Source: a virus (lineage: Duplodnaviria; Heunggongvirae; Uroviricota; Caudoviricetes). From it: a DNA stretch of 13,071 nucleotides. Shown piece by piece: positions 1 through 13,071 of this stretch (positions are counted from its first letter, which is position 1; each line of letters begins with the position of its first letter). The translations under genes and the position numbers were made by a program. Below the pieces are notes generated by a model that was not told the DNA's origin, ran no database searches, and saw nothing but the letters and a program-made list of their open reading frames with translations. The stretch is taken from IMG/VR virus record IMGVR_UViG_2681813316_000016, positions 1 through 13,071 of that record. The stretch is one strand, 5' to 3'.

Positions 1-287
1 GATTCAAGGCATTTACGGGAGAAAAAATCGGCTCAAACATGAAGAAATGAAATGACTGAGTCAGCCGAGAAGAATTTCCCCGCTTATTCGCACCTTCCTT
101 AGGTGTTAGCAGAATATAGCATCAAAGTCGAAACCGGTAGAAAAAATATTGGTGATTATTTCGCTGCATTTGGAACTGGAACAACAATGATTATTAGCAT
201 GATTGCTTTTTCCAGTCATAAGAATGAGTCGTGTTAATTTTTTCTATTCAATAGGAAATTATCATGTCATCAGAATATGAACAACTA

Positions 288-380
288 CGGTGACTTCTGC
301 GCTAAACGGGGACGTTTATGCGCACATACAATCCAAACTCTCTTCTCCCTCCACAGATGCAGAAATACACCTGCGATTTT
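288..380. repeat. Direct repeat copy 1 (~93 bp), near-identical to 2611..2703
   Basis: Read directly: cggtgacttctgcgctaaacggggacgtttatgcgcacatacaatc...cacctgcgatttt recurs at 2611..2703 with about 5 mismatches by eye; includes a GGGGA Shine-Dalgarno plus ATG (318). Confidence 0.8.
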
Positions 381-458
381 TTGCATTCGGTGTTTTTGGC
401 AGCCAAGAACAGGGAGTCTCTGTTTGTCTGGCGGCTAAAGGTGATATGGAAATCGTGA
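318..458 (+). CDS. Hypothetical small ORF (46 aa); N-terminal ~21 aa paralogous to the ylcH-like ORF at 2641
   Basis: ATG 318 preceded by GGGGA; first ~21 codons lie inside repeat copy 1 ([21 protein letters not shown]), then diverge. May be a non-functional duplicate. Confidence 0.2.
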
Positions 459-627
459 TGTCTTAGCCTAAAGTAGTTGCAACAGTTGGAGCGATTATGG
501 TGGTAGTAGTGATCATCGCGCCCCCCATATGCAAGGGTTGACGACATTATTTATCCGGCGCTATATTCTGTGCGTTGCCGCAAAATCGGCGCACGGGATT
601 GGCGTCCCGGACATCAAAACGACGCAT

Positions 628-648
628 AACCGCGTTCGCGGTTTTTTT
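628..648 (+). terminator. Candidate intrinsic terminator (short GC stem ACCGC/GCGGT, tetraloop, run of 7 T)
   Basis: aaccgcgttcgcggttttttt read directly; lies inside the 5' extension of track ORF 575..1420. Confidence 0.4.
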
Positions 649-811
649 ATGCGCAGTGCACGTCTACACAAAAATTATGGTGGGCTGTGTGAGGGCTTCT
701 TCGGAAGCGCCGGATTTCGTTTTGACCGGTTACGCCAACCTTGCACAGTCCACCACCAGTCGATTGGCGTCGTCGGTGGTGATAGCTCAAATTCAAAACG
801 AGATTATCGCT

Positions 812-1420
812 ATGGTCACTCAGCTCGCATTCCGCGATGTAAAATTCACTCCTATAAATCACAACAACCAGATCTGGTTTACCAGCAAAGAATTGGCGGC
901 AGCATTAAAATATGCCAGCACCAAAGCAGTAACCGACATCTACAACAAAAATATTGATGAGTTTACTGACGGAATGTCTCAGGTCGTCGAATCAACGACC
1001 TCAGGAAATTATCGTAAGAAGACTCGCATTTTCTCCCTCCGTGGCGCCCATCTGATCGCCATGTTCGCCCGCACTCCTGTGGCCAAAGAATTCCGCCGCT
1101 GGGTGCTGGATATTCTCGATCGAGAAATTCAACAATCCCCAATCACAAAACAATTCACTGATAACGAACTTTGCACACTTGCTTGGTTATGGCGGGCAAG
1201 TGACACAATGTTAACCGCTTGCCAAAACGTCACTCCGCTTCTTCAGGTAGCAAAACACCGCGAAGCCGGTCGCTTCACTTCAATCGAACAAGAATATCCC
1301 CGGATACTCAATAAGGCACAGGCAATCCTTGCCAGAGAAACGGCACATGTAAAATTCCGGCCGTGGCAGGATGATAAGTGGAGTCGAGTATTGACGCATT
1401 TACGTTCTGAACGGCTGTAA
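812..1420 (+). CDS. Bro-N domain protein (phage antirepressor / Roi-like DNA-binding protein)
   Basis: Track ORF 575..1420; N-terminus from ATG 812 (MVTQLAFRDVKFTPINHNNQIWFTSKELAAALKY...IFSLRGAHLIAMFARTPVAKEFRRWVLDIL) matches the Bro-N pattern. Start uncertain (ATG 812 or 677); the 628..648 terminator-like hairpin argues against 575. Confidence 0.6.
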   Translation: MVTQLAFRDVKFTPINHNNQIWFTSKELAAALKYASTKAVTDIYNKNIDEFTDGMSQVVESTTSGNYRKKTRIFSLRGAHLIAMFARTPVAKEFRRWVLDILDREIQQSPITKQFTDNELCTLAWLWRASDTMLTACQNVTPLLQVAKHREAGRFTSIEQEYPRILNKAQAILARETAHVKFRPWQDDKWSRVLTHLRSERL

Positions 1421-1720
1421 TAAAGTTGCGGGAGAGAAATGCCGCTAGTATTTTGTAATTAATTGAATGCTGACGGTTTAATGAGAAGTCAAGAACACTA
1501 CTTGTACTATAATCGTTCGATGTTAGTGAGGGTTTGATGCAAAAAAATGAAGTGATTGACCCTAAATTTGCGCGATCAGCGACAGATTGTACACCGAGAT
1601 CCTGTGGGCTGGAATTTGCAGAGAAATACCGAAAATGATATCCAATATTGTTTTCAGTTCCTACATCATACCTGATAAGGGTATAATCATAAAAATTAGG
1701 ATAATTCAAGTTATAATTGT

Positions 1721-2137
1721 ATGAATAAAAACGACCTTGAAGCATTATCTGACACTAGGCTTAATGAGGCCAAATGCTTGCTTGATCATGGCTTTTTTCA
1801 TGGTGCATATTATCTTTGTGGGTATGCAGTTGAATGTGCATTGAAGGCCTGTATTGCCAAGTCATTTTTACAACATGAGTTTCCAAACAAAAAAGTCGTA
1901 AATGATTCATATACTCATGATTTGTCGCAACTTCTCAAAATTGCCAACTTACATCAAATTTTGATTGCTGACGCAAAAAATGATGTTTCGTTGGAGATTA
2001 ACTGGTCGGTCGTTAAAGACTGGAGCGAGCAATTTAGATACGACAATAACATAAGTAAAGCTATGGCCGAACAATTGTTTGATGCTGTAGGTGACCAAAA
2101 TTCTGGAGTTTTGAAATGGGTAAAAGCACACTGGTAA
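1721..2137 (+). CDS. HEPN-like domain protein (138 aa), first gene of an AT-rich two-gene cargo cassette
   Basis: Track ORF; core GAYYLCGYAVECALKACIAK...SYTHDLSQLLKIANL resembles the HEPN helical signature (A-x-E-x-ALKA ... H-x-L-x-x-L); no canonical R-x(4-6)-H seen; visibly AT-rich; no obvious Shine-Dalgarno at ATG 1721. Confidence 0.55.
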   Translation: MNKNDLEALSDTRLNEAKCLLDHGFFHGAYYLCGYAVECALKACIAKSFLQHEFPNKKVVNDSYTHDLSQLLKIANLHQILIADAKNDVSLEINWSVVKDWSEQFRYDNNISKAMAEQLFDAVGDQNSGVLKWVKAHW

Positions 2138-2517
2138 TCGGCAGAGAGTTGACAAAAGATATGGAATTCTCAGGTCAATTTTTGTTAAAAAAACTCAAGT
2201 TACAGAATTTAACTATTGATGCTGCAATGTGGTTTTATTACCCAGATCTATCTTGGAGATATATTTTAGTTATCAGTGACTTCTCAGAACGTGGGCCGGC
2301 AGAAATATATAGAAAAATCAGTGAGATAAATAGAAATAGCATATCAAAAAAGTATAAGCCGATACCATTAGAAGCAATTGAGGCTAAGGGGGATTCAGCT
2401 TTTGTTTATAAAATGTTAAAAGGATTTGCTAGAGTCAACGATGGTAAAGTTCGCGTTTCTAATTCTATGGTAAATGGTTTAGAAATCGTTGACTGTCTGA
2501 TCTATGAGTTAAAATAA
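2116..2517 (+). CDS. Uncharacterized protein (133 aa; 118 aa if started at ATG 2161), partner of the HEPN-like gene
   Basis: Track ORF; start 2116 overlaps upstream gene by 22 nt, with GGAG about 8 nt upstream; no recognisable nucleotidyltransferase GS..DxD motif; AT-rich; no family recognised. Confidence 0.5.
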   Translation: MGKSTLVIGRELTKDMEFSGQFLLKKLKLQNLTIDAAMWFYYPDLSWRYILVISDFSERGPAEIYRKISEINRNSISKKYKPIPLEAIEAKGDSAFVYKMLKGFARVNDGKVRVSNSMVNGLEIVDCLIYELK

Positions 2518-2588
2518 GAAATCTCTTGCTGGGTATCATTATTGTTTAAATGACTTTTGATTTTCAATAATCAACTTGTCATAATTAA

Positions 2589-2617
2589 GTCACCGGAGTT
2601 TGAACTCCTCCGGTGAC
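2589..2617. other. Strong inverted repeat (gtcaccggag / ctccggtgac, 10-bp arms) at the left edge of repeat copy 2
   Basis: Read directly; not followed by a T-run so not a typical intrinsic terminator; absent from the equivalent position of copy 1. Confidence 0.6.
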
Positions 2618-2703
2618 TTCTGCGCTAAACGGGGACGTTTATGCGCACATACAATCTAAACTATCTTCTCCCGTCACAGATGCAGAAATGCACCTGCGAT
2701 TTT
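2611..2703. repeat. Direct repeat copy 2 (~93 bp), partner of 288..380
   Basis: Same offset (2323 bp) for repeat start and for the embedded ATG (318 vs 2641). Confidence 0.8.
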
Positions 2704-2742
2704 CTTTATCCAGCGTTTGACCTCTGCGGAGGTGAAGCGTGA
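2641..2742 (+). CDS. ylcH: Small protein (33 aa), YlcH-like, translationally coupled to ninB/ybcN
   Basis: GGGGA Shine-Dalgarno 5 nt upstream of ATG 2641; stop TGA 2740..2742 overlaps GTG start of next gene (GTGA); position immediately upstream of ybcN matches DLP12 ylcH as recalled. Symbol from memory, unverified. Confidence 0.4.
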
Positions 2743-3194
2743 ACCTCCCACAAGACGGCATCAAACTGCATCGCGGTAACTTCACCGCTATCGGTCAGCA
2801 GCTCCAGCCTTATTTGGAAGACGGCAAGTGCTTTCGCATGGTGCTTAAACCGTGGCGCGAGAGACGCAGTCTTTCCCAGAATGCACTCAGCCACATGTGG
2901 TACAGCGAAATCAGTGAATACCTCATCAGCAGGGGTAAAACGTTCGCCACTCCAGCTTGGGTAAAAGATGCTCTCAAACACACATATCTCGGTTATGAAA
3001 CCAAAGACCTGGTTGATGTCGTAACCGGTGATATCACCACTATCCAGTCGTTACGCCATACCTCCGATCTTGATACCGGAGAGATGTATGTCTTCCTGTG
3101 TAAGGTTGAAGCCTGGGCGATGAATATTGGTTGCCATCTGACTATTCCGCAGAGCTGCGAGTTCCAGCAGCTCCGCGACAAGCAGGAGGCGTAA
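2739..3194 (+). CDS. ybcN: NinB/Orf-family recombination protein (YbcN-like, 151 aa)
   Basis: Track ORF; GTG start with GGAGGTGA upstream; [12 protein letters not shown] resembles lambda NinB RSLDQNRKLWA motif; synteny with ninE-ybcO-rusA. Confidence 0.8.
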
Positions 3195-3364
3195 TGGCTA
3201 CACCGCTTATTCGTGTCATGAACGGACACATCTACAGAGTACCAAATCGTCGTAAGCGTAAACCTGAGCTGAAGCCATCCGAAATACCAACACTGCTCGG
3301 GTATACCGCCAGCCTGGTTGATAAAAAATGGTTGCGACTGGCAGCAAGGAGGAGTCATGGCTGA
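3194..3364 (+). CDS. ninE: NinE-like protein (56 aa)
   Basis: ATG 3194 overlaps ybcN stop (TAATG), GGAGG upstream; in-frame part of track ORF 3131..3364; C-terminus YTASLVDKKWLRLAARR resembles lambda NinE as recalled. Confidence 0.55.
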   Translation: MATPLIRVMNGHIYRVPNRRKRKPELKPSEIPTLLGYTASLVDKKWLRLAARRSHG

Positions 3365-3647
3365 TTTGAGAAAAGCAGCGCGTGGTCGGGAATGCCAGGT
3401 AAGAATCCCTGGCGTATGTAATGGCAACCCTGAAACGTCTGTACTGGCACATATCCGGCTGACTGGATTGTGCGGCACCGGTACCAAACCGCCAGACCTG
3501 ATTGCCACCATTGCATGTTCTGCCTGCCACGACGAAATCGACCGCCGCACACATTTTGTCGATGCTGCATATGCAAAAGAATGCGCGCTGGAAGGTATGG
3601 CGAGAACACAGGTTATCTGGCTGAAAGAGGGGGTTATTAAGGCGTGA
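3357..3647 (+). CDS. ybcO: YbcO-like protein (DUF1364, Cys-rich putative nuclease)
   Basis: ATG 3357 ([23 protein letters not shown]...) within track ORF 3318..3647, GGAG upstream; Cys pairs CQV..C and CSAC suggest zinc binding; matches recalled DLP12 YbcO. Confidence 0.75.
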
Positions 3648-4006
3648 ATACCTACAGCATCACATTACCCTGGCCTCCGAGCAATAATCGCTATTACCGC
3701 CATAATCGCGGGCGCACGCACGTCAGCGCAGAGGGGCAGGCATACCGCGATAACGTCGCCCGAATCATTAAAAACGCAATGCTGGATATCGGCCTGGCTA
3801 TGCCTGTGAAAATCCGTATTGAGTGCCACATGCCGGATCGCCGTCGCCGTGACCTGGATAATCTGCAAAAAGCCGCTTTTGACGCACTCACTAAAGCAGG
3901 TTTCTGGCTAGATGATGCTCAGGTCGTTGATTACCGCGTTGTGAAGATGCCTGTTACCAAAGGTGGGAGGCTGGAACTGACCATCACCGAAATGGGGAAT
4001 GAATGA
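3644..4006 (+). CDS. rusA: RusA Holliday-junction resolvase (120 aa)
   Basis: Track ORF; [36 protein letters not shown]... matches E. coli RusA as recalled; GTG start overlapping ybcO stop. Confidence 0.95.
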
Positions 4007-4143
4007 TGTTTGAGTTTAATATGGCAGAACTTCTTCGCCACCGCTGGGGGCGTCTGCGCTTATATCGTTTCCCCGGTTCTGTTTTGACCGATTACCGAAT
4101 ACTGAAGAATTACGCCAAAACCCTGACAGGAGCAGGAGTATGA
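4003..4143 (+). CDS. ylcG: YlcG-like small protein (46 aa)
   Basis: ATG 4003 overlapping rusA stop; [46 protein letters not shown]; position between rusA and the Q homolog as in DLP12. Confidence 0.55.
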
Positions 4144-4228
4144 AGTCAGAGATAACAATCAACTAATACTGTTTTGTTGATTTTTGCTTGTAATTGGCGT
4201 TCTGGTCTGATTTTTGTGGAGTAAGTTG

Positions 4229-4612
4229 ATGCGTGATATTCAGATGGCTCTTGAGCGTTGGGGAGCGTGGGCGGCTAATAATCATGAAGATGTGACCTGG
4301 TCGTCCATTGCCGCCGGTTTTAAGGGATTAATTCCTTCAAAAGTAAAATCTCGCCCACAATGTTGTGACGATGACGCGATGAGCATTTGCGGGTGCATGG
4401 CCCGTCTGAAAAAGAACAACAGCGATTTGCACGATTTATTAGTAGATTATTATGTAGTCGGTATGACATTCATGTCACTGGCAGGTAAGCATTGCTGCTC
4501 TGATGGTTATATCGGGAAAAGGTTACAGAAGGCTGAGGGTATAATTGAAGGGATGTTAATGGCATTAGATATCCGGTTAGAGATGGATATCGTTGTTAAT
4601 AACTCTAATTAA
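4229..4612 (+). CDS. quuD: Late-gene antiterminator Q homolog (QuuD-like, 127 aa)
   Basis: ATG 4229 within track ORF 4214..4612, GGAG upstream; [24 protein letters not shown]...; Cys-rich centre; location upstream of the lysis cassette. Confidence 0.75.
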
Positions 4613-4645
4613 TATGCCAATTGTTTACTAAAAATTATTAAAAAT

Positions 4646-4663
4646 GGGGCGTTGAGACGCCCC
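4646..4663 (-). terminator. Intrinsic terminator hairpin (GGGGCGT / ACGCCCC, 7-bp stem, 4-nt loop), U-run on the minus strand
   Basis: Read directly; on the minus strand the stem is followed by ATTTTTAATAATTTTT; on the plus strand an A-tract precedes it. Lies between convergent quuD and porin gene. Confidence 0.5.
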
Positions 4664-4801
4664 CAAAAATAAAGGGTAATATATAACAGAAGGTTTATAT
4701 AGTTAGAAGCAAGGTTGTGCTTCTAAAGGAAGTGGCTTGAGGGAGCCACTTATATGTTGGGGAGGGAACGCCTCCCGCAACATATCTTTTTCGTAATCAG
4801 A

Positions 4802-5899
4802 TTAGAACTGGTAAACCAGACCTACAGCAACGATGTCATCAGTGCTTACACCGAGTGCTTTAGTGAAGTCATTTTTGTCAAGCAGGTTGATTTTGTAATC
4901 AACGAAAGTAGACATATTTTTGTTGAAGTAATAGGTTGCACCTACATCAACATATTTGACTAAGTCCTGATCGCCCCATACTCCAAGATCCTTACCTTTA
5001 GATTGCAGGTAAGCAACGGACGGACGCAGACCGAAATCGAACTGATATTGTGCAACAGCTTCGAAGTTTTGGGCTTTATTAGCAACGAAGTGATCAGCAA
5101 ATACAGTCATATTCTGGGTTTCAGAATAGGTAGTGGCCAGGTAAATGTTGTTAGCGTCATATTTCAGACCTGCGGCCCAAACTTCTGCATTTTTACCGGA
5201 AGCAAATACTTCAGGAAGAACTTTCCCTGCATTAACTTGAGTGTCGGTACGATCAGATTTCGCATAAGTTGCACCGATACCGAATCCTTCGTATTCATAG
5301 GTAGCAGAGAAACCGAAGCCATCACCGTTACCTTCAGTGTAGTTATCGAAATCGCTACGATCGTTTTTGCCTTGGTACTGAGCAGCAAAGTTCAGACCAT
5401 CAACCAGACCAAAGAAGTCGTTGTTACGATAGGTTGCAACACCAGTGGTGCGACCAGTCATGAACACATCTGTTTGGGTCCAGGTATCGCCACCGAATTC
5501 TGGCAGAACGTCAGTCCACGCACCGATGTCGTATGCTACACCGTAGTTACGGCCGTAATCGATGGAGCCGTAGTCACCGAATTTCAGGCCAGCGAAGGCA
5601 AGACGGGTTTTATCTTTGGAGGAACCTTGAGATTCAGCGCGGTTGCCTTTGAATTCATATTCCCACTGACCGAAACCAGTCAGTTGATCGTTGATTTGGG
5701 TTTCACCTTTGAAGCCAAGACGGGCATAAGTAGTATCACCATCATCTGCATCATTAGAGGAGAAGTAGTGCTTAGCATTAACTTTCCCGTACAGATCCAG
5801 CTTGTTACTGTCTTTATTATAAATTTCAGCTGCCTGAGCAGACATCGCCATCAGTACTGATGCAGCTACAGCAGAAATTGCCACTGTTAATTTTTTCAT
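4802..5899 (-). CDS. nmpC: Outer-membrane porin, NmpC/OmpD family (365 aa, intact, with signal peptide)
   Basis: Track ORF; signal peptide [23 protein letters not shown] then [16 protein letters not shown]...; porin-typical aromatic-rich strands and C-terminal VYQF. Confidence 0.9.
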
Positions 5900-6180
5900 C
5901 GTGAGCCCTTTTTTTTGAACTATTATTAAAAAATGATGTCACTGCGCGATAAATATTCATCTAATCAATGTGATTATTTCAAGATGTAAGTTTTGGTTTC
6001 TCGTTTAATTTGTGAAGTAGATCTCTATTTTTATCTAAACTTTTTTCTATCGAATCCTATTCATGGCTCTTGGCTGAATAAAAATAAATCTATTAGCCAA
6101 TTTATATTAATGGCTGTTATTTATAAGCGCTCTATAATTTGAAGGTTCAATTTAAACTGGCTAAAAATAACGCTGGAAAT

Positions 6181-6202
6181 TATTTGTTGGTTATTTGTTG
6201 AG
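6181..6202. repeat. Tandem 11-bp direct repeat (ttatttgttgg / ttatttgttga)
   Basis: Read directly in the AT-rich region upstream of the porin gene; one helical turn per unit suggests a protein-binding site. Confidence 0.4.
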
Positions 6203-6269
6203 ATTTGCTTATGTATTTGTAGTGGTGTTTTCAATACTCGGTAGCATTCTCGCAAATATCATTTAGTGG

Positions 6270-6297
6270 TTTACGTACGTAAAAAATTGGTTATGCT
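6270..6297 (+). promoter_or_regulatory. Candidate late promoter (pR'-like): TTTACG / TTACGT ... TATGCT
   Basis: Hexamers read by eye with about 15-16 bp spacing; only supported by the downstream plus-strand terminator and the position upstream of the lysis cassette. Confidence 0.25.
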
Positions 6298-6327
6298 GTT
6301 AAGAGTGGTTACTTCGTCACACAGCTT

Positions 6328-6360
6328 AAACCCGCCGTCGAGCGGGTTTTTCCATTTTTT
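6328..6360 (+). terminator. Intrinsic terminator (AAACCCGC / GCGGGTTT stem, 6-nt loop, T-run); candidate tR'
   Basis: Read directly; no plus-strand gene upstream, so it would end a short leader transcript, as with lambdoid tR'. Confidence 0.55.
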
Positions 6361-6472
6361 GAGTCTCGATATTAGCTGATAACCCAATACCTGAGTTATT
6401 CACTGACTCCGAGTCTGTTACGTTTCGTAGTATTCCCTCAATTTACACCCGCTTTGTCTGCGAGGTGGGGTT

Positions 6473-6688
6473 ATGAAATCCATGGATAAGTTAACAACGG
6501 GTGTCGCCTATGGCACCTCAGCAGGTAGTGCCGGGTACTGGTTTTTACAGCTGCTCGATAAAGTCACGCCCTCACAGTGGGCAGCAATAGGTGTGCTGGG
6601 TAGCCTGGTATTTGGCCTGCTGACGTACCTGACAAACCTTTATTTCAAGATTAAAGAAGATAAGCGCAAGGCTGCGAGAGGTGAATAA
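6473..6688 (+). CDS. essD: Class II holin / pinholin, phage 21 S-like (71 aa), with dual-start motif MKSM
   Basis: Track ORF; [26 protein letters not shown]...[19 protein letters not shown] closely resembles S21 as recalled; two transmembrane segments; ATGs at 6473 and 6482. Confidence 0.9.
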
Positions 6689-7185
6689 TGCCTCCATCAT
6701 TACGAAAAGCTGTTGCTGCTGCTATTGGTGGCGGGGCTATTGCTATAGCATCTGTGTTAATCACTGGCCCAAGTGGTAACGATGGTCTGGAAGGTGTGAG
6801 ACATAATCCTTACAAAGACATAGTTGGTGTATGGACTGTATGTTACGGGCATACAGGAAAAGACATCATTCCCGGTAAAACGTATACCGAAGCAGAGTGC
6901 AAAGCCCTCCTGAATAAAGACCTTGCCACTGTCGCCAGACAAATTAACCGGTACATCAAAGTCGATATACCGGAAACAACGCGCGGCGCTCTTTACTCGT
7001 TCGTCTACAACGTGGGTGCTGGCAATTTCAGAACATCGACGCTTCTTCGCAAAATAAACCAGGGTGATATTAAAGGCGCATGTGATCAGCTACGGCGCTG
7101 GACATACGCTGGCGGTAATCAATGGAAAGGACTGATGACTCGCCGTGAGATTGAGCGTGAAGTCTGTTTGTGGGGGAAACAATGA
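6688..7185 (+). CDS. rrrD: SAR endolysin (phage 21 R-like lysozyme, 165 aa)
   Basis: Track ORF; N-terminal Gly/Ala-rich signal-anchor-release segment [20 protein letters not shown]; start overlaps holin stop (TAATG). Confidence 0.9.
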
Positions 7186-7640
7186 GCAGAGTAACCGCGA
7201 TTATCTCCGCTCTGGTTATCTGCATCATCGTCTGCCTGTCATTGGCTGTTAATCATTACCGTGATAACGCAATCGCCTACAAAGAGCAGCGCGATAACAA
7301 GGCCAGTGAACTAGAGAAGGCGAACGCCACCATCGCTGACATGCGGAAGCGTCAACGTGATGTAGCAGAACTCGACGCAAGATACACAAAGGAGCTTGCT
7401 GATGCTAACGCGACTATCGAAAGTCTCCGTGCTGATGTTTCTGCTGGGCGTAAGCGCCTGCAAGTCGCCGCCACCTGTGCAAAGTCAACGACCGGAGCCA
7501 GCGGCATGGGCGATGGAGAAAGCCCAGGACTTACAGCAGATGCTGAACTCAATTATTACCGTCTCCGAAGTGGAATCGACAAGATAACCGCGCAGGTTAA
7601 CTACCTGCAGGAATACATCAGGACGCAATGCCTGAAATAA
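7182..7640 (+). CDS. rzpD: Rz i-spanin (inner-membrane spanin subunit)
   Basis: ATG 7182 within track ORF 7170..7640, overlapping endolysin stop; N-terminal transmembrane segment then coiled-coil-like charged region. Confidence 0.85.
7396..7587 (+). CDS. rzoD: Rz1 o-spanin lipoprotein, embedded in the +1 frame of Rz
   Basis: Track ORF fully inside Rz; lipobox-like VSAC with Cys22; Pro-rich mature part ([12 protein letters not shown]). Confidence 0.8.
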
Positions 7641-7663
7641 TTTTTTTGCAAATCACAAAGTCC

Positions 7664-7687
7664 ATTTAATGAGCCTCGCGATGCGGG
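7664..7687 (+). terminator. Intrinsic terminator after Rz (GCCTCGC...GCGGGGC stem, 7-T run)
   Basis: gcctcgcgatgcggggcttttttt read directly, about 25 nt after the Rz stop. Confidence 0.6.
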
Positions 7688-7809
7688 GCTTTTTTTACAT
7701 CTGAATTTCACAGCGCATCTCACGCGCATATTACATCACCCGAGCCTTTCAGAAAGTTGAGCCTGAGAACTGCCGTATATGGTGGCGACCATCTCGGGGC
7801 GGCTTTTCT

Positions 7810-8334
7810 GTGAGACAGGCTCACTTTCTAAAAGGTAAAGACGCTATGAACCAATTAGAAGAAAAGCTTCAAAGAATGATTTCCTTATACAAGGAAGATA
7901 ACTGCCAAAAAGTTCCTGAAAACATCGCAGAGTTAATGGAATTGGCAAGTGAATTTTCTGGCATGCTTAAGTCGTCAGGTGTTCGGTCAGCGTTCTTTGT
8001 TGAAATGCTGATGCACGGCGGACTTATGACAACAATGAGACGTGTAATGGAAGACCAGAGAAAAGAACCTCCTCAGGTATACGTTTTGTCATCGAAGAAA
8101 ACTGGGCTAACCAAAATTGGGTATTCATCCAACATTCCACAACGCATCAAATCGCTTGGCAACTCTGGACCAGACTGCTTGAAGCTTGAGTGCCTGATCC
8201 CTGGTGGAAGAGAAACTGAAAACATGCTTCATCGCAAATTTGCCGCAAAGAGAAAGCACGGTGAATGGTTCGCCCTGTCCAAGGATGACATTGAGGGATT
8301 GAAATCTGTAGCGATTACTTCTGATGGCTATTAA
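7810..8334 (+). CDS. T5orf172 / GIY-YIG-like domain protein; cargo gene where lambda carries bor
   Basis: Track ORF (GTG 7810; ATG 7846 would give MNQLEEK...). C-terminal half VYVLSSKKTGLTKIGYSSNIPQRIKSL...ETENMLH...GEWF fits the T5orf172 pattern; N-terminal ~80 aa unrecognised. Confidence 0.6.
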   Translation: MRQAHFLKGKDAMNQLEEKLQRMISLYKEDNCQKVPENIAELMELASEFSGMLKSSGVRSAFFVEMLMHGGLMTTMRRVMEDQRKEPPQVYVLSSKKTGLTKIGYSSNIPQRIKSLGNSGPDCLKLECLIPGGRETENMLHRKFAAKRKHGEWFALSKDDIEGLKSVAITSDGY

Positions 8335-8648
8335 TGCTTGTTTAGAGCAATTTTCATAACAACTCTTCATTACAAAGCCCATCTACTGGTGGGCTTGATA
8401 ATGAAACCGTGATTTACATCCCCACAATCCGGGTATGTAAAAGATAGTTCAGGCGAGAACGGATTTAACTAAATCTGTGCGTCACCAGTTAACGGCAGTA
8501 CCACGAAACAACCCAAGCCAGTAAGTGGGGAAATAACACCGGCAGCCACTGAAAGATGAACCTCCTGCCTTATGGCAAAAAAGATTCTTTGTGGTGGCGG
8601 ACTGATGGAAAGACATCCTAATTTCAGCCAAACATTGAAGGAGTTGTT

Positions 8649-8720
8649 ATGTCAGCAGAAGGTTTCAATAACCCATCAAAATTCCGGGATGAGTGGGATA
8701 GCAGCGTAAAGAGTAAGTGA
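8649..8720 (+). CDS. Hypothetical 23-aa peptide with strong Shine-Dalgarno (GAAGGAG)
   Basis: GAAGGAG 5 nt upstream of ATG 8649; MSAEGFNNPSKFRDEWDSSVKSK; sits in a ~680-bp gap without long ORFs. Sequence only. Confidence 0.2.
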   Translation: MSAEGFNNPSKFRDEWDSSVKSK

Positions 8721-9012
8721 TGCCATCACAAAAGCCATTCCCTACAGAGTGGCTTTGATAATGGCTTATACCCTACACGGGATAACTTAACTGATATCCC
8801 TTTTAAAGGATAAAGGTATTCAAGCCTGACACATCATGCGCTGTATCGTCGCCGTATTCCCGTATTAACAGAGACCGTAGCCCGACGGGGAACTCCTTCT
8901 GCGCGAGTGTGCGGGAATAATCAAAAACGATGCACACTGGGGTTACCGGGTACACATATTTCATCATGCCAGCGAGTCCGGTTCTGGCACGGAAGAAACC
9001 GGACGTTATGAT

Positions 9013-9423
9013 TTAGTGCGGAAATATTTGTGTAGTGTTCTGAATGTTCTCAGTAAAGAGTAATGAATTATCAAAGGTATAGTAATACCTTTTGTTTTCG
9101 TGGATATTTGTAATCCATCTGAAAACCCCTGCTGTAGCAAGATTTTTCCTGTATTCGTAAAATGATAACTCTCCTGATTTGAATCCTTTTAATGTGGCTT
9201 CTATAAGGCATTTATTTTTTGAAAATCTTACATTTACAACCTTACCCTGTCCTTTTATTAAAACCGTATTATCGTTTTCAAGAACAAGATGAATATTCTC
9301 TGTGGCTAAATAGTAAATGTAATGTGAGACATTGTGACGTTTTAGTTCAGAATAAAACCAGTGATAGTTTAAATTATTTCGCACTTTATCGAATATTTGT
9401 TTAAAAATGGCAACCTGAGCCAT
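9013..9423 (-). CDS. ybcV: YbcV-like protein (DUF1398 family, 136 aa)
   Basis: Track ORF 9013..9438; ATG at 9423 ([13 protein letters not shown]...) has AAGG about 7 nt upstream; AT-rich; resembles DLP12 YbcV as recalled. Confidence 0.6.
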
Positions 9424-9427
9424 TGTA

Positions 9428-9453
9428 GTACCTTCCATGTGATATGAAGGTAC
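9428..9453 (-). promoter_or_regulatory. Inverted repeat (GTACCTTC / GAAGGTAC, 8-bp arms, 10-nt loop) enclosing the ybcV Shine-Dalgarno
   Basis: Read directly; in the minus-strand mRNA the 3' arm contains GAAGG just upstream of ATG 9423, so it could be an operator or a translation-sequestering hairpin. Confidence 0.4.
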
Positions 9454-9480
9454 CTAGTCTGCACGATTATCTAAATTGCT

Positions 9481-9714
9481 TCAATCTGGTCTGACCTGCT
9501 TTCTGAGCAATTCAGTAATGTCACTCTTTTCTTTGTTTGCTTCAGGCGAAACTCTTTTTTCTGAGCACAGTCTTCGGCGGCAGGCTTCAATGACCCAGGC
9601 TGAGAAATTCCCGGACCCTTTTTGATCAAGAGCGATGTTAATTTGTTCAATCATTTGGTTAGGAAAGCGGATGTTGCGGGTTGTTGTTCTGCGGGTTCTG
9701 TTCTTCGTTGACAT
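9481..9714 (-). CDS. ylcI: YlcI-like small protein (DUF3950), probable ribbon-helix-helix DNA-binding fold
   Basis: Track ORF; RNIRFPNQMIEQINIALDQKGSGNFSAWVIEACRRRL resembles the Arc/Mnt strand-helix-loop-helix layout; directly upstream of ybcV on the same strand. Confidence 0.55.
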   Translation of the reverse strand: MSTKNRTRRTTTRNIRFPNQMIEQINIALDQKGSGNFSAWVIEACRRRLCSEKRVSPEANKEKSDITELLRKQVRPD

Positions 9715-9779
9715 GAGGTTGTCCCGTATTCAGTGTCGCTGATTTGTATTGTCTGAAGTTGTTTTTACGTTAAGTTGAT

Positions 9780-10100
9780 GCAGATCAATTAATATGATAC
9801 CTGCGTCATAATTGATTATTTGACGTGGTTTGATGGCGTAGATGCACGTTGTGACATGCAGATGATAATTATTATCATTTTGCGGGTCCTTTCCGGCGAT
9901 CCGACAGGTTACGGGGCGGCGACCTCGCGGGTTTTCGCTATTTATGAAAATTTTCCGGTTTAAGGCGTTTCCGTTCTTCTTCGTCGTAACTTGATGTTTT
10001 TATTTAAAATACCCTCTGAAAAGAAAGGAAACGACAGGTGCTGAAAACGAGCTTTTGGGCCTCTGTCGTTTCCTTTCTCTGTTTTAGGCCGTGGAATGAA
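9780..10100 (+). other. Lambda-type cos region (cosQ, cosN, cosB); 12-nt cohesive end GGGCGGCGACCT at 9914..9925
   Basis: ...gatccgacaggttacg / gggcggcgacctcgcgggttttcgctatttatgaaaattttccgg matches the junction of lambda right and left genome ends as recalled; immediately upstream of Nu1. Confidence 0.9.
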
Positions 10101-10102
10101 CA

Positions 10103-10623
10103 ATGGAAGTCAACAAAAAGCAGCTGGCTGACATTTTCGGTGCGAGTATCCGTACCATTCAGAACTGGCAGGAACAGGGAATGCCCGTTCTGCGAGGCGG
10201 TGGCAAGGGTAATGAGGTGCTTTATGACTCTGCCGCCGTTATAAGATGGTATGCCGAAAGGGATGCTGAAATTGAGAACGAAAAGCTGCGCCGGGAAGTT
10301 GAAGAACTGCGGCAGGCCAGCGAGACAGATCTCCAGCCAGGGACTATTGAGTACGAACGCCATCGACTTACGCGTGCGCAGGCCGACGCACAGGAGCTGA
10401 AAAATGCCAGAGACTCCGCTGAAGTGGTGGAAACCGCATTCTGTACTTTCGTGCTGTCGCCGGATCGCAGGTGAAATTGCCAGTACTCTCGACGGGATCC
10501 CCCTGTCGGTGCAGCGGCGTTTTCCGGAACTGGAAAACCGACATGTTGATTTCCTGAAACGGGATATCATCAAAGCCATGAACAAAGCAGCCGCGCTGGA
10601 TGAACTGATACCGGGGTTGCTGA

Positions 10624-10649
<26 letters not shown>
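10103..10649 (+). pseudogene. nu1: Terminase small subunit Nu1, split by an apparent +1 frameshift near 10459..10462
   Basis: Track ORF 10103..10474 ([36 protein letters not shown]...FVLSPDRR*) and ORF 10404..10649 (...IAGEIAS...SEYIEQSG) each match lambda Nu1 in different frames; window has gtcgccggatcgc where lambda has gtcgcggatcgc as recalled. Confidence 0.7.

Positions 10650-13071
<2,422 letters not shown>

Follow-up and report, generated by a model that had tools for sequence, protein, structure and literature searches.

A Single-Base Insertion Disrupts the Terminase Small-Subunit Gene nu1 in a Contig of a Lambdoid Escherichia coli Prophage

Introduction

The question raised by this locus is whether a lambdoid prophage that keeps its cos site and the gene for the large terminase subunit has lost the small subunit, Nu1, through one extra base, and whether that base is a real mutation. 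An earlier note had placed a single extra C near position 10460 of the sequence and had concluded that, if this is real, the prophage cannot package DNA by itself. The term window is used here for the whole stretch of DNA analyzed, which is 13,071 nt in length and corresponds to the entire contig CYBQ01000053.1 of the draft assembly GCA_001284265.1 (identified by exact-protein look-up). As set out below, the frameshift is best read as a real loss of function by ordinary pseudogenization, with a probability of about 0.65 on the evidence of the assembled draft contig.

Prophage Context of the Window

The window is the late region of a lambdoid, DLP12/lambda-like prophage of E. coli. Its genes are arranged in the following order:

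Start: antirepressor gene (Bro-N/P22_AR_C), followed by a HEPN-domain gene and its 133-aa neighbor
Next: ybcN, ninE, ybcO, rusA, ylcG and Q, followed by a porin gene on the opposite strand
Then: holin, lysozyme and Rz genes, followed by a T5orf172 gene and by the DUF1398 and DUF3950 genes
End: cos, nu1, A, W and the 5′ part of B

Several elements upstream of cos are described here as observations in their own right. Two Rfam matches, isrK at 576–648 (plus strand, 61.9 bits) and C4 antisense RNA at 673–760 (plus strand, 82.5 bits), lie immediately 5′ of the Bro-N/P22_AR_C antirepressor gene (812–1420), and together they make up a P1/P7 immI-like or Gifsy isrK-type control module within a lambdoid prophage. 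Secondary BLAST matches reveal a 115-nt direct repeat (266–380 and 2589–2703, 89.6% identity), one copy of which is located 5′ of the isrK/C4 region while the other overlaps the start of a 33-aa ORF that precedes ybcN. The HEPN-domain gene (138 aa) overlaps the 133-aa gene, which has no family match, within 1721–2517 on the plus strand. In PADLOC, the HEPN protein weakly resembles the candidate defense family PDC-M28A (E = 1.8e-7), and the two genes may form a toxin–antitoxin or defense pair in the nin region. The T5orf172/MUG113-domain gene (7846–8334, plus strand), which is located between Rz and cos, has a weak match to PADLOC PDC-S57. The porin gene (4802–5899, minus strand) encodes a 365-aa protein of the OmpC/NmpC type and is located between Q and the holin gene, the place occupied by the stx genes in Stx phages; the porin is a common exact allele that occurs on at least 1000 contigs.

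The Frameshift in nu1

Pairwise alignment with lambda and multiple alignments with intact E. coli alleles identify exactly one indel in nu1 (10103–10649), the addition of one C at 10460/10461, where the window has GTCGCCGGATC and lambda and all other aligned alleles have GTCG-CGGATC. The extra C described in the earlier note is thus borne out at the nucleotide level. The resulting features are as follows:

10103–10474, plus strand: N-terminal fragment of nu1, 123 aa, consisting of native residues 1–119 followed by PDRR and a stop
10404–10649, plus strand: frame-2 ORF, 81 aa, consisting of 19 out-of-frame residues followed by native Nu1 residues 120–181 (the rest of the gpA-binding region)
10460–10461, plus strand: CC dinucleotide with the one-base insertion, a single C in all other alleles; the alignment column is filled in 1/80 sequences only, the window

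Frame 1 runs from the ATG at 10103 to the TGA at 10472–10474 and encodes the 123-aa product with the C-terminal end ...FVLSPDRR, whereas frame 2 holds the native Nu1 C-terminal sequence RIAGEIAS...EQSG through 10649. The Pfam family Phage_Nu1 (PF07471) is split accordingly between the two ORFs, the first of which covers profile positions 1–119 (E = 1e-74) and the second 119–164. These translations and the divided Pfam match confirm that neither half of Nu1 is missing and that the two are read in different frames. The earlier note is also right that the site is no long homopolymer: the insertion changes C to CC, and the longest run in the zone of frame overlap is A5.

The N-terminal fragment contains the winged helix-turn-helix (wHTH) DNA-binding and dimerization domain and is homologous to lambda Nu1, as indicated by the Pfam and PDB matches. 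Residues 1–98 match PDB 6HN7 chain B (1e-58) and differ from the crystallized lambda domain at two positions, and residues 1–68 match 1J9I; the solved Nu1 structures cover residues 1–98 (6HN7), 1–68 (1J9I) and 1–55 (7LW0). The window has no continuous Nu1 ORF of the usual length (about 181 aa) extending through the C-terminal TerL-binding region, as the frame meets a stop after 123 aa. The location typical of nu1 is kept, between cosB (R3, R2 and R1) and gpA, with the start of gpA overlapping the end of nu1. Judged by its sequence, the gene belongs to the lambda Nu1 family, but it has no continuous ORF and is a Nu1 pseudogene.

cos and the Other Packaging Genes

The elements surrounding nu1 are as follows:

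9914–9925, plus strand: cosN, GGGCGGCGACCT, the exact lambda 12-mer, the same in 73/80 aligned alleles
9964–9981, plus strand: cosB R3, a Nu1-binding site with the core CGTTTCC at 9966; it has the majority sequence (59/80) and no difference from lambda inside the element
10017–10034, minus strand: cosB R2, with the core GGAAACG on the plus strand at 10027; identical in 74/80 alleles and to lambda
10062–10080, plus strand: cosB R1, with the core CGTTTCC at 10067; identical in 70/80 alleles and to lambda
10624–12549, plus strand: gpA, terminase large subunit, 641 aa, with a GTG start and an ORF open without a stop codon
12546–12752, plus strand: gpW, head–tail joining protein, intact, 68 aa; an exact allele found on at least 1000 contigs
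12749–13071, plus strand: 5′ part of the portal gene B (gene call), cut by the contig end and carrying the private change A22V (12813)

The arrangement is that of lambda, with about 97.6% nucleotide identity over cos–nu1 and the same cosN, R3, R2 and R1. The GTG start of gpA at 10624 is located within the last 26 nt of nu1, which ends at 10649, and in lambda gene A likewise starts with GTG 26 nt inside the end of nu1. The difference from lambda is that the reading frame of nu1 in the window ends after 123 aa, leaving the C-terminal 62 residues, part of the gpA-binding region, out of frame.

The earlier view that cos, gpA, gpW and the start of gpB are intact holds in most respects: cosN and the R elements have the majority sequence, gpW is an exact allele, and the ORFs are open. 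It needs qualification for two of the proteins. gpA is intact as an ORF but has four private amino-acid changes at sites without protein variation in the 79 relatives described below, and its exact protein was found on CYBQ01000053.1 only (exact-protein look-up); the start of gpB is open but has one private amino-acid change.

Occurrence of the Insertion in Other Genomes

Exact matches to the 27-mer with the inserted C are absent from the GTDB species genomes, from IMG/VR and from the JGI metagenome contigs. When a 71-nt query was compared by BLAST with complete E. coli genomes, the best identity among 4,023 matching records was 97.2%, which corresponds to the gap plus a mismatch at 10486. Full-length nu1 alleles sampled across the ranking of matches from complete genomes span 546 nt in 51/51 cases. 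The record H192 appeared to be a gapless match and was rejected, as its alignment has no insertion and its nu1 is fused by deletion to a J remnant.

The alignment set consisted of 79 relatives (lambda, four RefSeq loci and 74 IMG/VR loci), or 80 sequences with the window. In 79/79 relatives nu1 is 546 nt in length with its first stop at codon 182, the window being the sole exception, and the intact form is therefore the selected state. Conservation of the same frameshift as a split gene in many intact phages, which would speak against a disrupted gene, was looked for and was seen in 0/79 relatives. At the protein level, the exact 123-aa product is recorded on this contig only, and exact-protein look-up found no record of the 81-aa frame-2 product.

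The rarity of the insertion has to be read together with that of the prophage. Exact proteins encoded by rare alleles in the window occur on few contigs (Q on 5, YbcN on 8, T5orf172 on 3), and the prophage lineage itself is rare, so that the age of the insertion can hardly be judged from its being unique. The antiterminator Q (4229–4612, plus strand) is a rare allele found in about 4 samples, and is set apart from the other QuuD proteins sampled by A7, P36 and S52. The cos–nu1 stretch as such is matched in 4,603/5,426 complete E. coli genomes, at a median of 2 places per genome.

Single-base deletions were observed in the 5′ part of the portal gene B in two of the aligned loci, L085 (at window position 12781) and L029 (at window position 12891). 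One-base lesions in the packaging module are therefore not unique to the window.

Recoding, a Split Gene, or a New Role

A functional reading of the locus, in which nu1 is expressed by +1 frameshifting, works as a two-piece gene, or yields a truncated fragment that acts as a packaging-interference protein, is very unlikely. In the first variant, full-length Nu1 would be made by a +1 shift within 10401–10474, for example at CGC-AGG-UGA, where the rare Arg codon AGG immediately precedes the UGA stop (10469–10474). In this zone, however, there is no recognized +1 motif, no prfB-type CUU-UGA site and no run longer than A5; the RNA 3′ of the site folds no better than shuffled sequences (z = −0.89), and Rfam has no match in the frameshift region of nu1. 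Moreover, the P-site codons CGC and AGG would be expected to re-pair poorly in the +1 frame. Conservation is a feature of programmed recoding sites and of functional split genes, whereas the insertion is found nowhere else among the genome, viral and metagenome contigs, the 4,023 E. coli records and the 79 relatives. This absence makes programmed slippage unlikely, as the earlier note had also judged it to be, and a programmed frameshift was rejected on the combined grounds of motif, run length, RNA structure and conservation.

In the split-gene variant, the 81-aa ORF would be translated from a start of its own, and AGGAG is indeed present 7 nt 5′ of the ATG at 10404. The AGGAG–ATG combination is present in 46/79 intact alleles (47/80 with the window), which marks it as a fortuitous, neutral polymorphism, and a split gene was rejected on this basis. 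The genes next to nu1 also have the appearance of relaxed constraint rather than of a preserved function.

The interference variant draws on the fact that the N-terminal fragment has the complete DNA-binding and dimerization domain. Rpp, a TerS-binding packaging redirector of E. coli PICIs, heterodimerizes with the same TerS domain and blocks lambda packaging (PMC6739421). By analogy, a 123-aa Nu1 expressed late could sit on cosB or dimerize with the Nu1 of another phage, and the packaging of a superinfecting or co-resident lambdoid phage might be poisoned as it is by Rpp. As in the Rpp complex (6HN7), the truncated product would have a wHTH able to pair with the TerS of a helper and would have no TerL-binding tail (PMC6739421). 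The fragment is the phage's own DNA-binding domain, unlike Rpp, which is a diverged mimic, so that the likeness is one of analogy only; and, also unlike Rpp, it has no sign of selection, conservation or altered cos. Conservation as a gene, by which a protein of the Rpp/Ppi type would be recognized, is not seen for a product confined to a single contig. It is likewise very unlikely that the 123-aa Nu1 serves as a dominant-negative small terminase or, in a weaker variant, that leaky +1 frameshifting at CGC-AGG-UGA yields sufficient full-length Nu1 for the prophage to stay viable.

Sibling Contigs and Private Substitutions

Through the Q and T5orf172 proteins, sibling contigs were found in three other samples, and these are 100% identical to the window over 99–10377:

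Window 99–7479: CYEI01000040.1 (GCA_001285545.2), 100% identical
Window 7410–10377: CYEI01000071.1 (GCA_001285545.2), 100% identical
Window 99–10000: metagenome contig of ERZ27269966, 100% identical
Window 2627–5912: Logan contig of SRR28368623, 100% identical

This identity shows the first 10.3 kb to be accurately assembled. All sibling contigs stop at or before 10377, short of 10460, and therefore neither confirm nor refute the insertion. Other proteins encoded by the window are common as well, 8/10 of those tested being exact alleles on at least 1000 contigs, and on these grounds the idea that the whole contig is error-rich was rejected for the 5′ 10 kb. Positions 1–98 are unmatched in the siblings, which align from 99; the contig edge here probably falls on a repeat junction.

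Besides the extra C, the window has six further private substitutions, all of which are located 3′ of 10377, are nonsynonymous and occur in 0/79 relatives:

10486: I128T in nu1 (native frame)
11349: H242Q in gpA
11994: M457I in gpA
12282: D553E in gpA
12453: S610R in gpA
12813: A22V in gpB

The sites of 5/6 substitutions are invariant across the 79 relatives. In four of the six, the third base of the codon has become A. The ratio of 6 nonsynonymous to 0 synonymous changes differs (Fisher p = 0.0014) from the 34 to 75 counted for singletons in the remaining 72 distinct sequences and fits the neutral nonsynonymous fraction of 0.75 (binomial p = 0.18), a pattern that random sequence errors would also give. 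The ratio can thus be explained by a lack of selective constraint on the packaging module or by a local problem of sequence quality. When the private changes are set aside, the terminase segment corresponds to the allele found in E. coli strain 873.10 (locus L007) with four further differences. The stretch 10650–13071 has a best match of 99.6% in complete genomes, with no indel, and none of these matches is better than the L007 allele. A chimera of two alleles was rejected, since the segment matches a single allele and has no mosaic pattern.

Real Mutation or Assembly Artifact

An assembly error had been allowed for from the start and is retained as the main rival to a real mutation; it is unlikely, though considerably less so than the functional readings discussed above. 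Two forms of it can be distinguished. The extra C, and perhaps the six substitutions too, may have arisen in short-read assembly, scaffolding or gap filling; or the contig may wrongly connect the late region with a decayed terminase region that belongs to a different, cryptic prophage of the same genome, in which case the prophage's own nu1 would be intact. Both forms suit a region with several near-identical prophage copies: the window is a complete 13,071-bp draft contig, and the cos–nu1–A region is multi-copy in most E. coli genomes. Sibling contigs end at 10000 and 10377, at the beginning of the conserved region, and this points to branching of the assembly graph. Private differences number 0 in 99–10377 and seven in the 2.7 kb after 10377, and neither the insertion nor the exact gpA protein occurs in any other sample. 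An artifact or mis-join is thus favored by the position of all seven changes in the multi-copy stretch where sibling assemblies break, and by the unmatched first 98 nt of the contig, which suggest that its edges are repeat junctions.

A real mutation is favored by the adjacent 10 kb being perfect, as consensus errors at about 0.26% would be very unusual beside 10 kb of 100% accuracy, and the lesion is a change from C to CC with no long homopolymer. It is also favored by the nature of the substitutions: the collapse of two ordinary copies would give known polymorphisms, yet 5/6 are new bases at the invariant sites. The segment is otherwise a single known allele, with no chimeric pattern. One frameshift and six amino-acid changes with no silent change have the look of an unconstrained packaging module, and also that of random errors. 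The case is one of ordinary prophage decay, or possibly of an assembly error, in a very well known gene, and involves no new mechanism.

Comparison with Known Prophages

Among described prophages, the closest parallel is Sp4 of E. coli O157:H7 Sakai, in which nu1 is disrupted by an IS element and the DNA is still packaged (Asadulghani et al., 2009; PMC2669165). The terminase of Sp14, which has a near-identical cos, is the most likely source of this activity (PMC2669165), and packaging with a terminase from a co-resident prophage has a precedent in Sp4. Both Sp4 and the prophage in the window are lambdoid and combine an inactivated nu1 with a usable cos and an otherwise lambda-like packaging and head region. 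They differ in the lesion, which is a 1-nt frameshift in the window and an IS insertion in Sp4.

A second group for comparison consists of nohA and nohD, the Nu1 homologs in the cryptic prophages Qin and DLP12, which are the same gene; RefSeq labels the nearest intact alleles nohA or nohD. Many E. coli proteins consist of about 93–98% of Nu1 fused to fragments of Lom, gpU, gpW/FII, J or tail fiber, and loss of the Nu1 C-terminus is therefore a common fate in cryptic prophages. These fusions (P0012–P0065; L005, 1501–2121) arose by deletion in cryptic prophages in which nu1 (nohA/nohD) stays open. In such remnants gpA and the head genes have been removed by large deletions, whereas the window keeps gpA, gpW and gpB in their normal order, and, compared with the nohA/nohD remnants, the frameshift is its only structural lesion.

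Consequences for Packaging

Residues 1–98 of TerS form a soluble dimeric DNA-binding domain, and TerL binding depends on residues 100–181 (Fillol-Salom et al., 2019; PMC6739421). If the frameshift is real, the C inserted in codon 120 of nu1 would shift the frame by +1, and the 123-aa product would retain the winged-helix DNA-binding and dimerization domain that recognizes the cosB R elements while losing most of the gpA-binding C-terminal region (residues 100–181). Terminase would then not be anchored at cos, and packaging of the prophage's own DNA would not be started. From this known domain layout, we infer that the prophage would be unable to package DNA by itself, as the earlier note had held. 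Translation would also end 150 nt before the start of gpA, and any translational coupling to gpA would probably be lost. The six private amino-acid changes in nu1, A and B suggest that the packaging module is no longer under purifying selection.

As cosN and cosB are intact, the element would remain packageable with Nu1 of the same specificity supplied by another lambdoid phage in the same cell. Such a helper should often be present, since cos–nu1 occurs in most complete E. coli genomes and typically at two places.

For draft assemblies in general, single-base lesions in the repeated cos–nu1–A region need confirmation at the level of reads before they are given biological meaning. If the frameshift is real, the prophage should be scored as packaging-defective and helper-dependent, which would alter predictions of its induction and transfer. 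The finding matters little beyond annotation, and would add one more case to the pool of defective prophages of the type known from E. coli O157.
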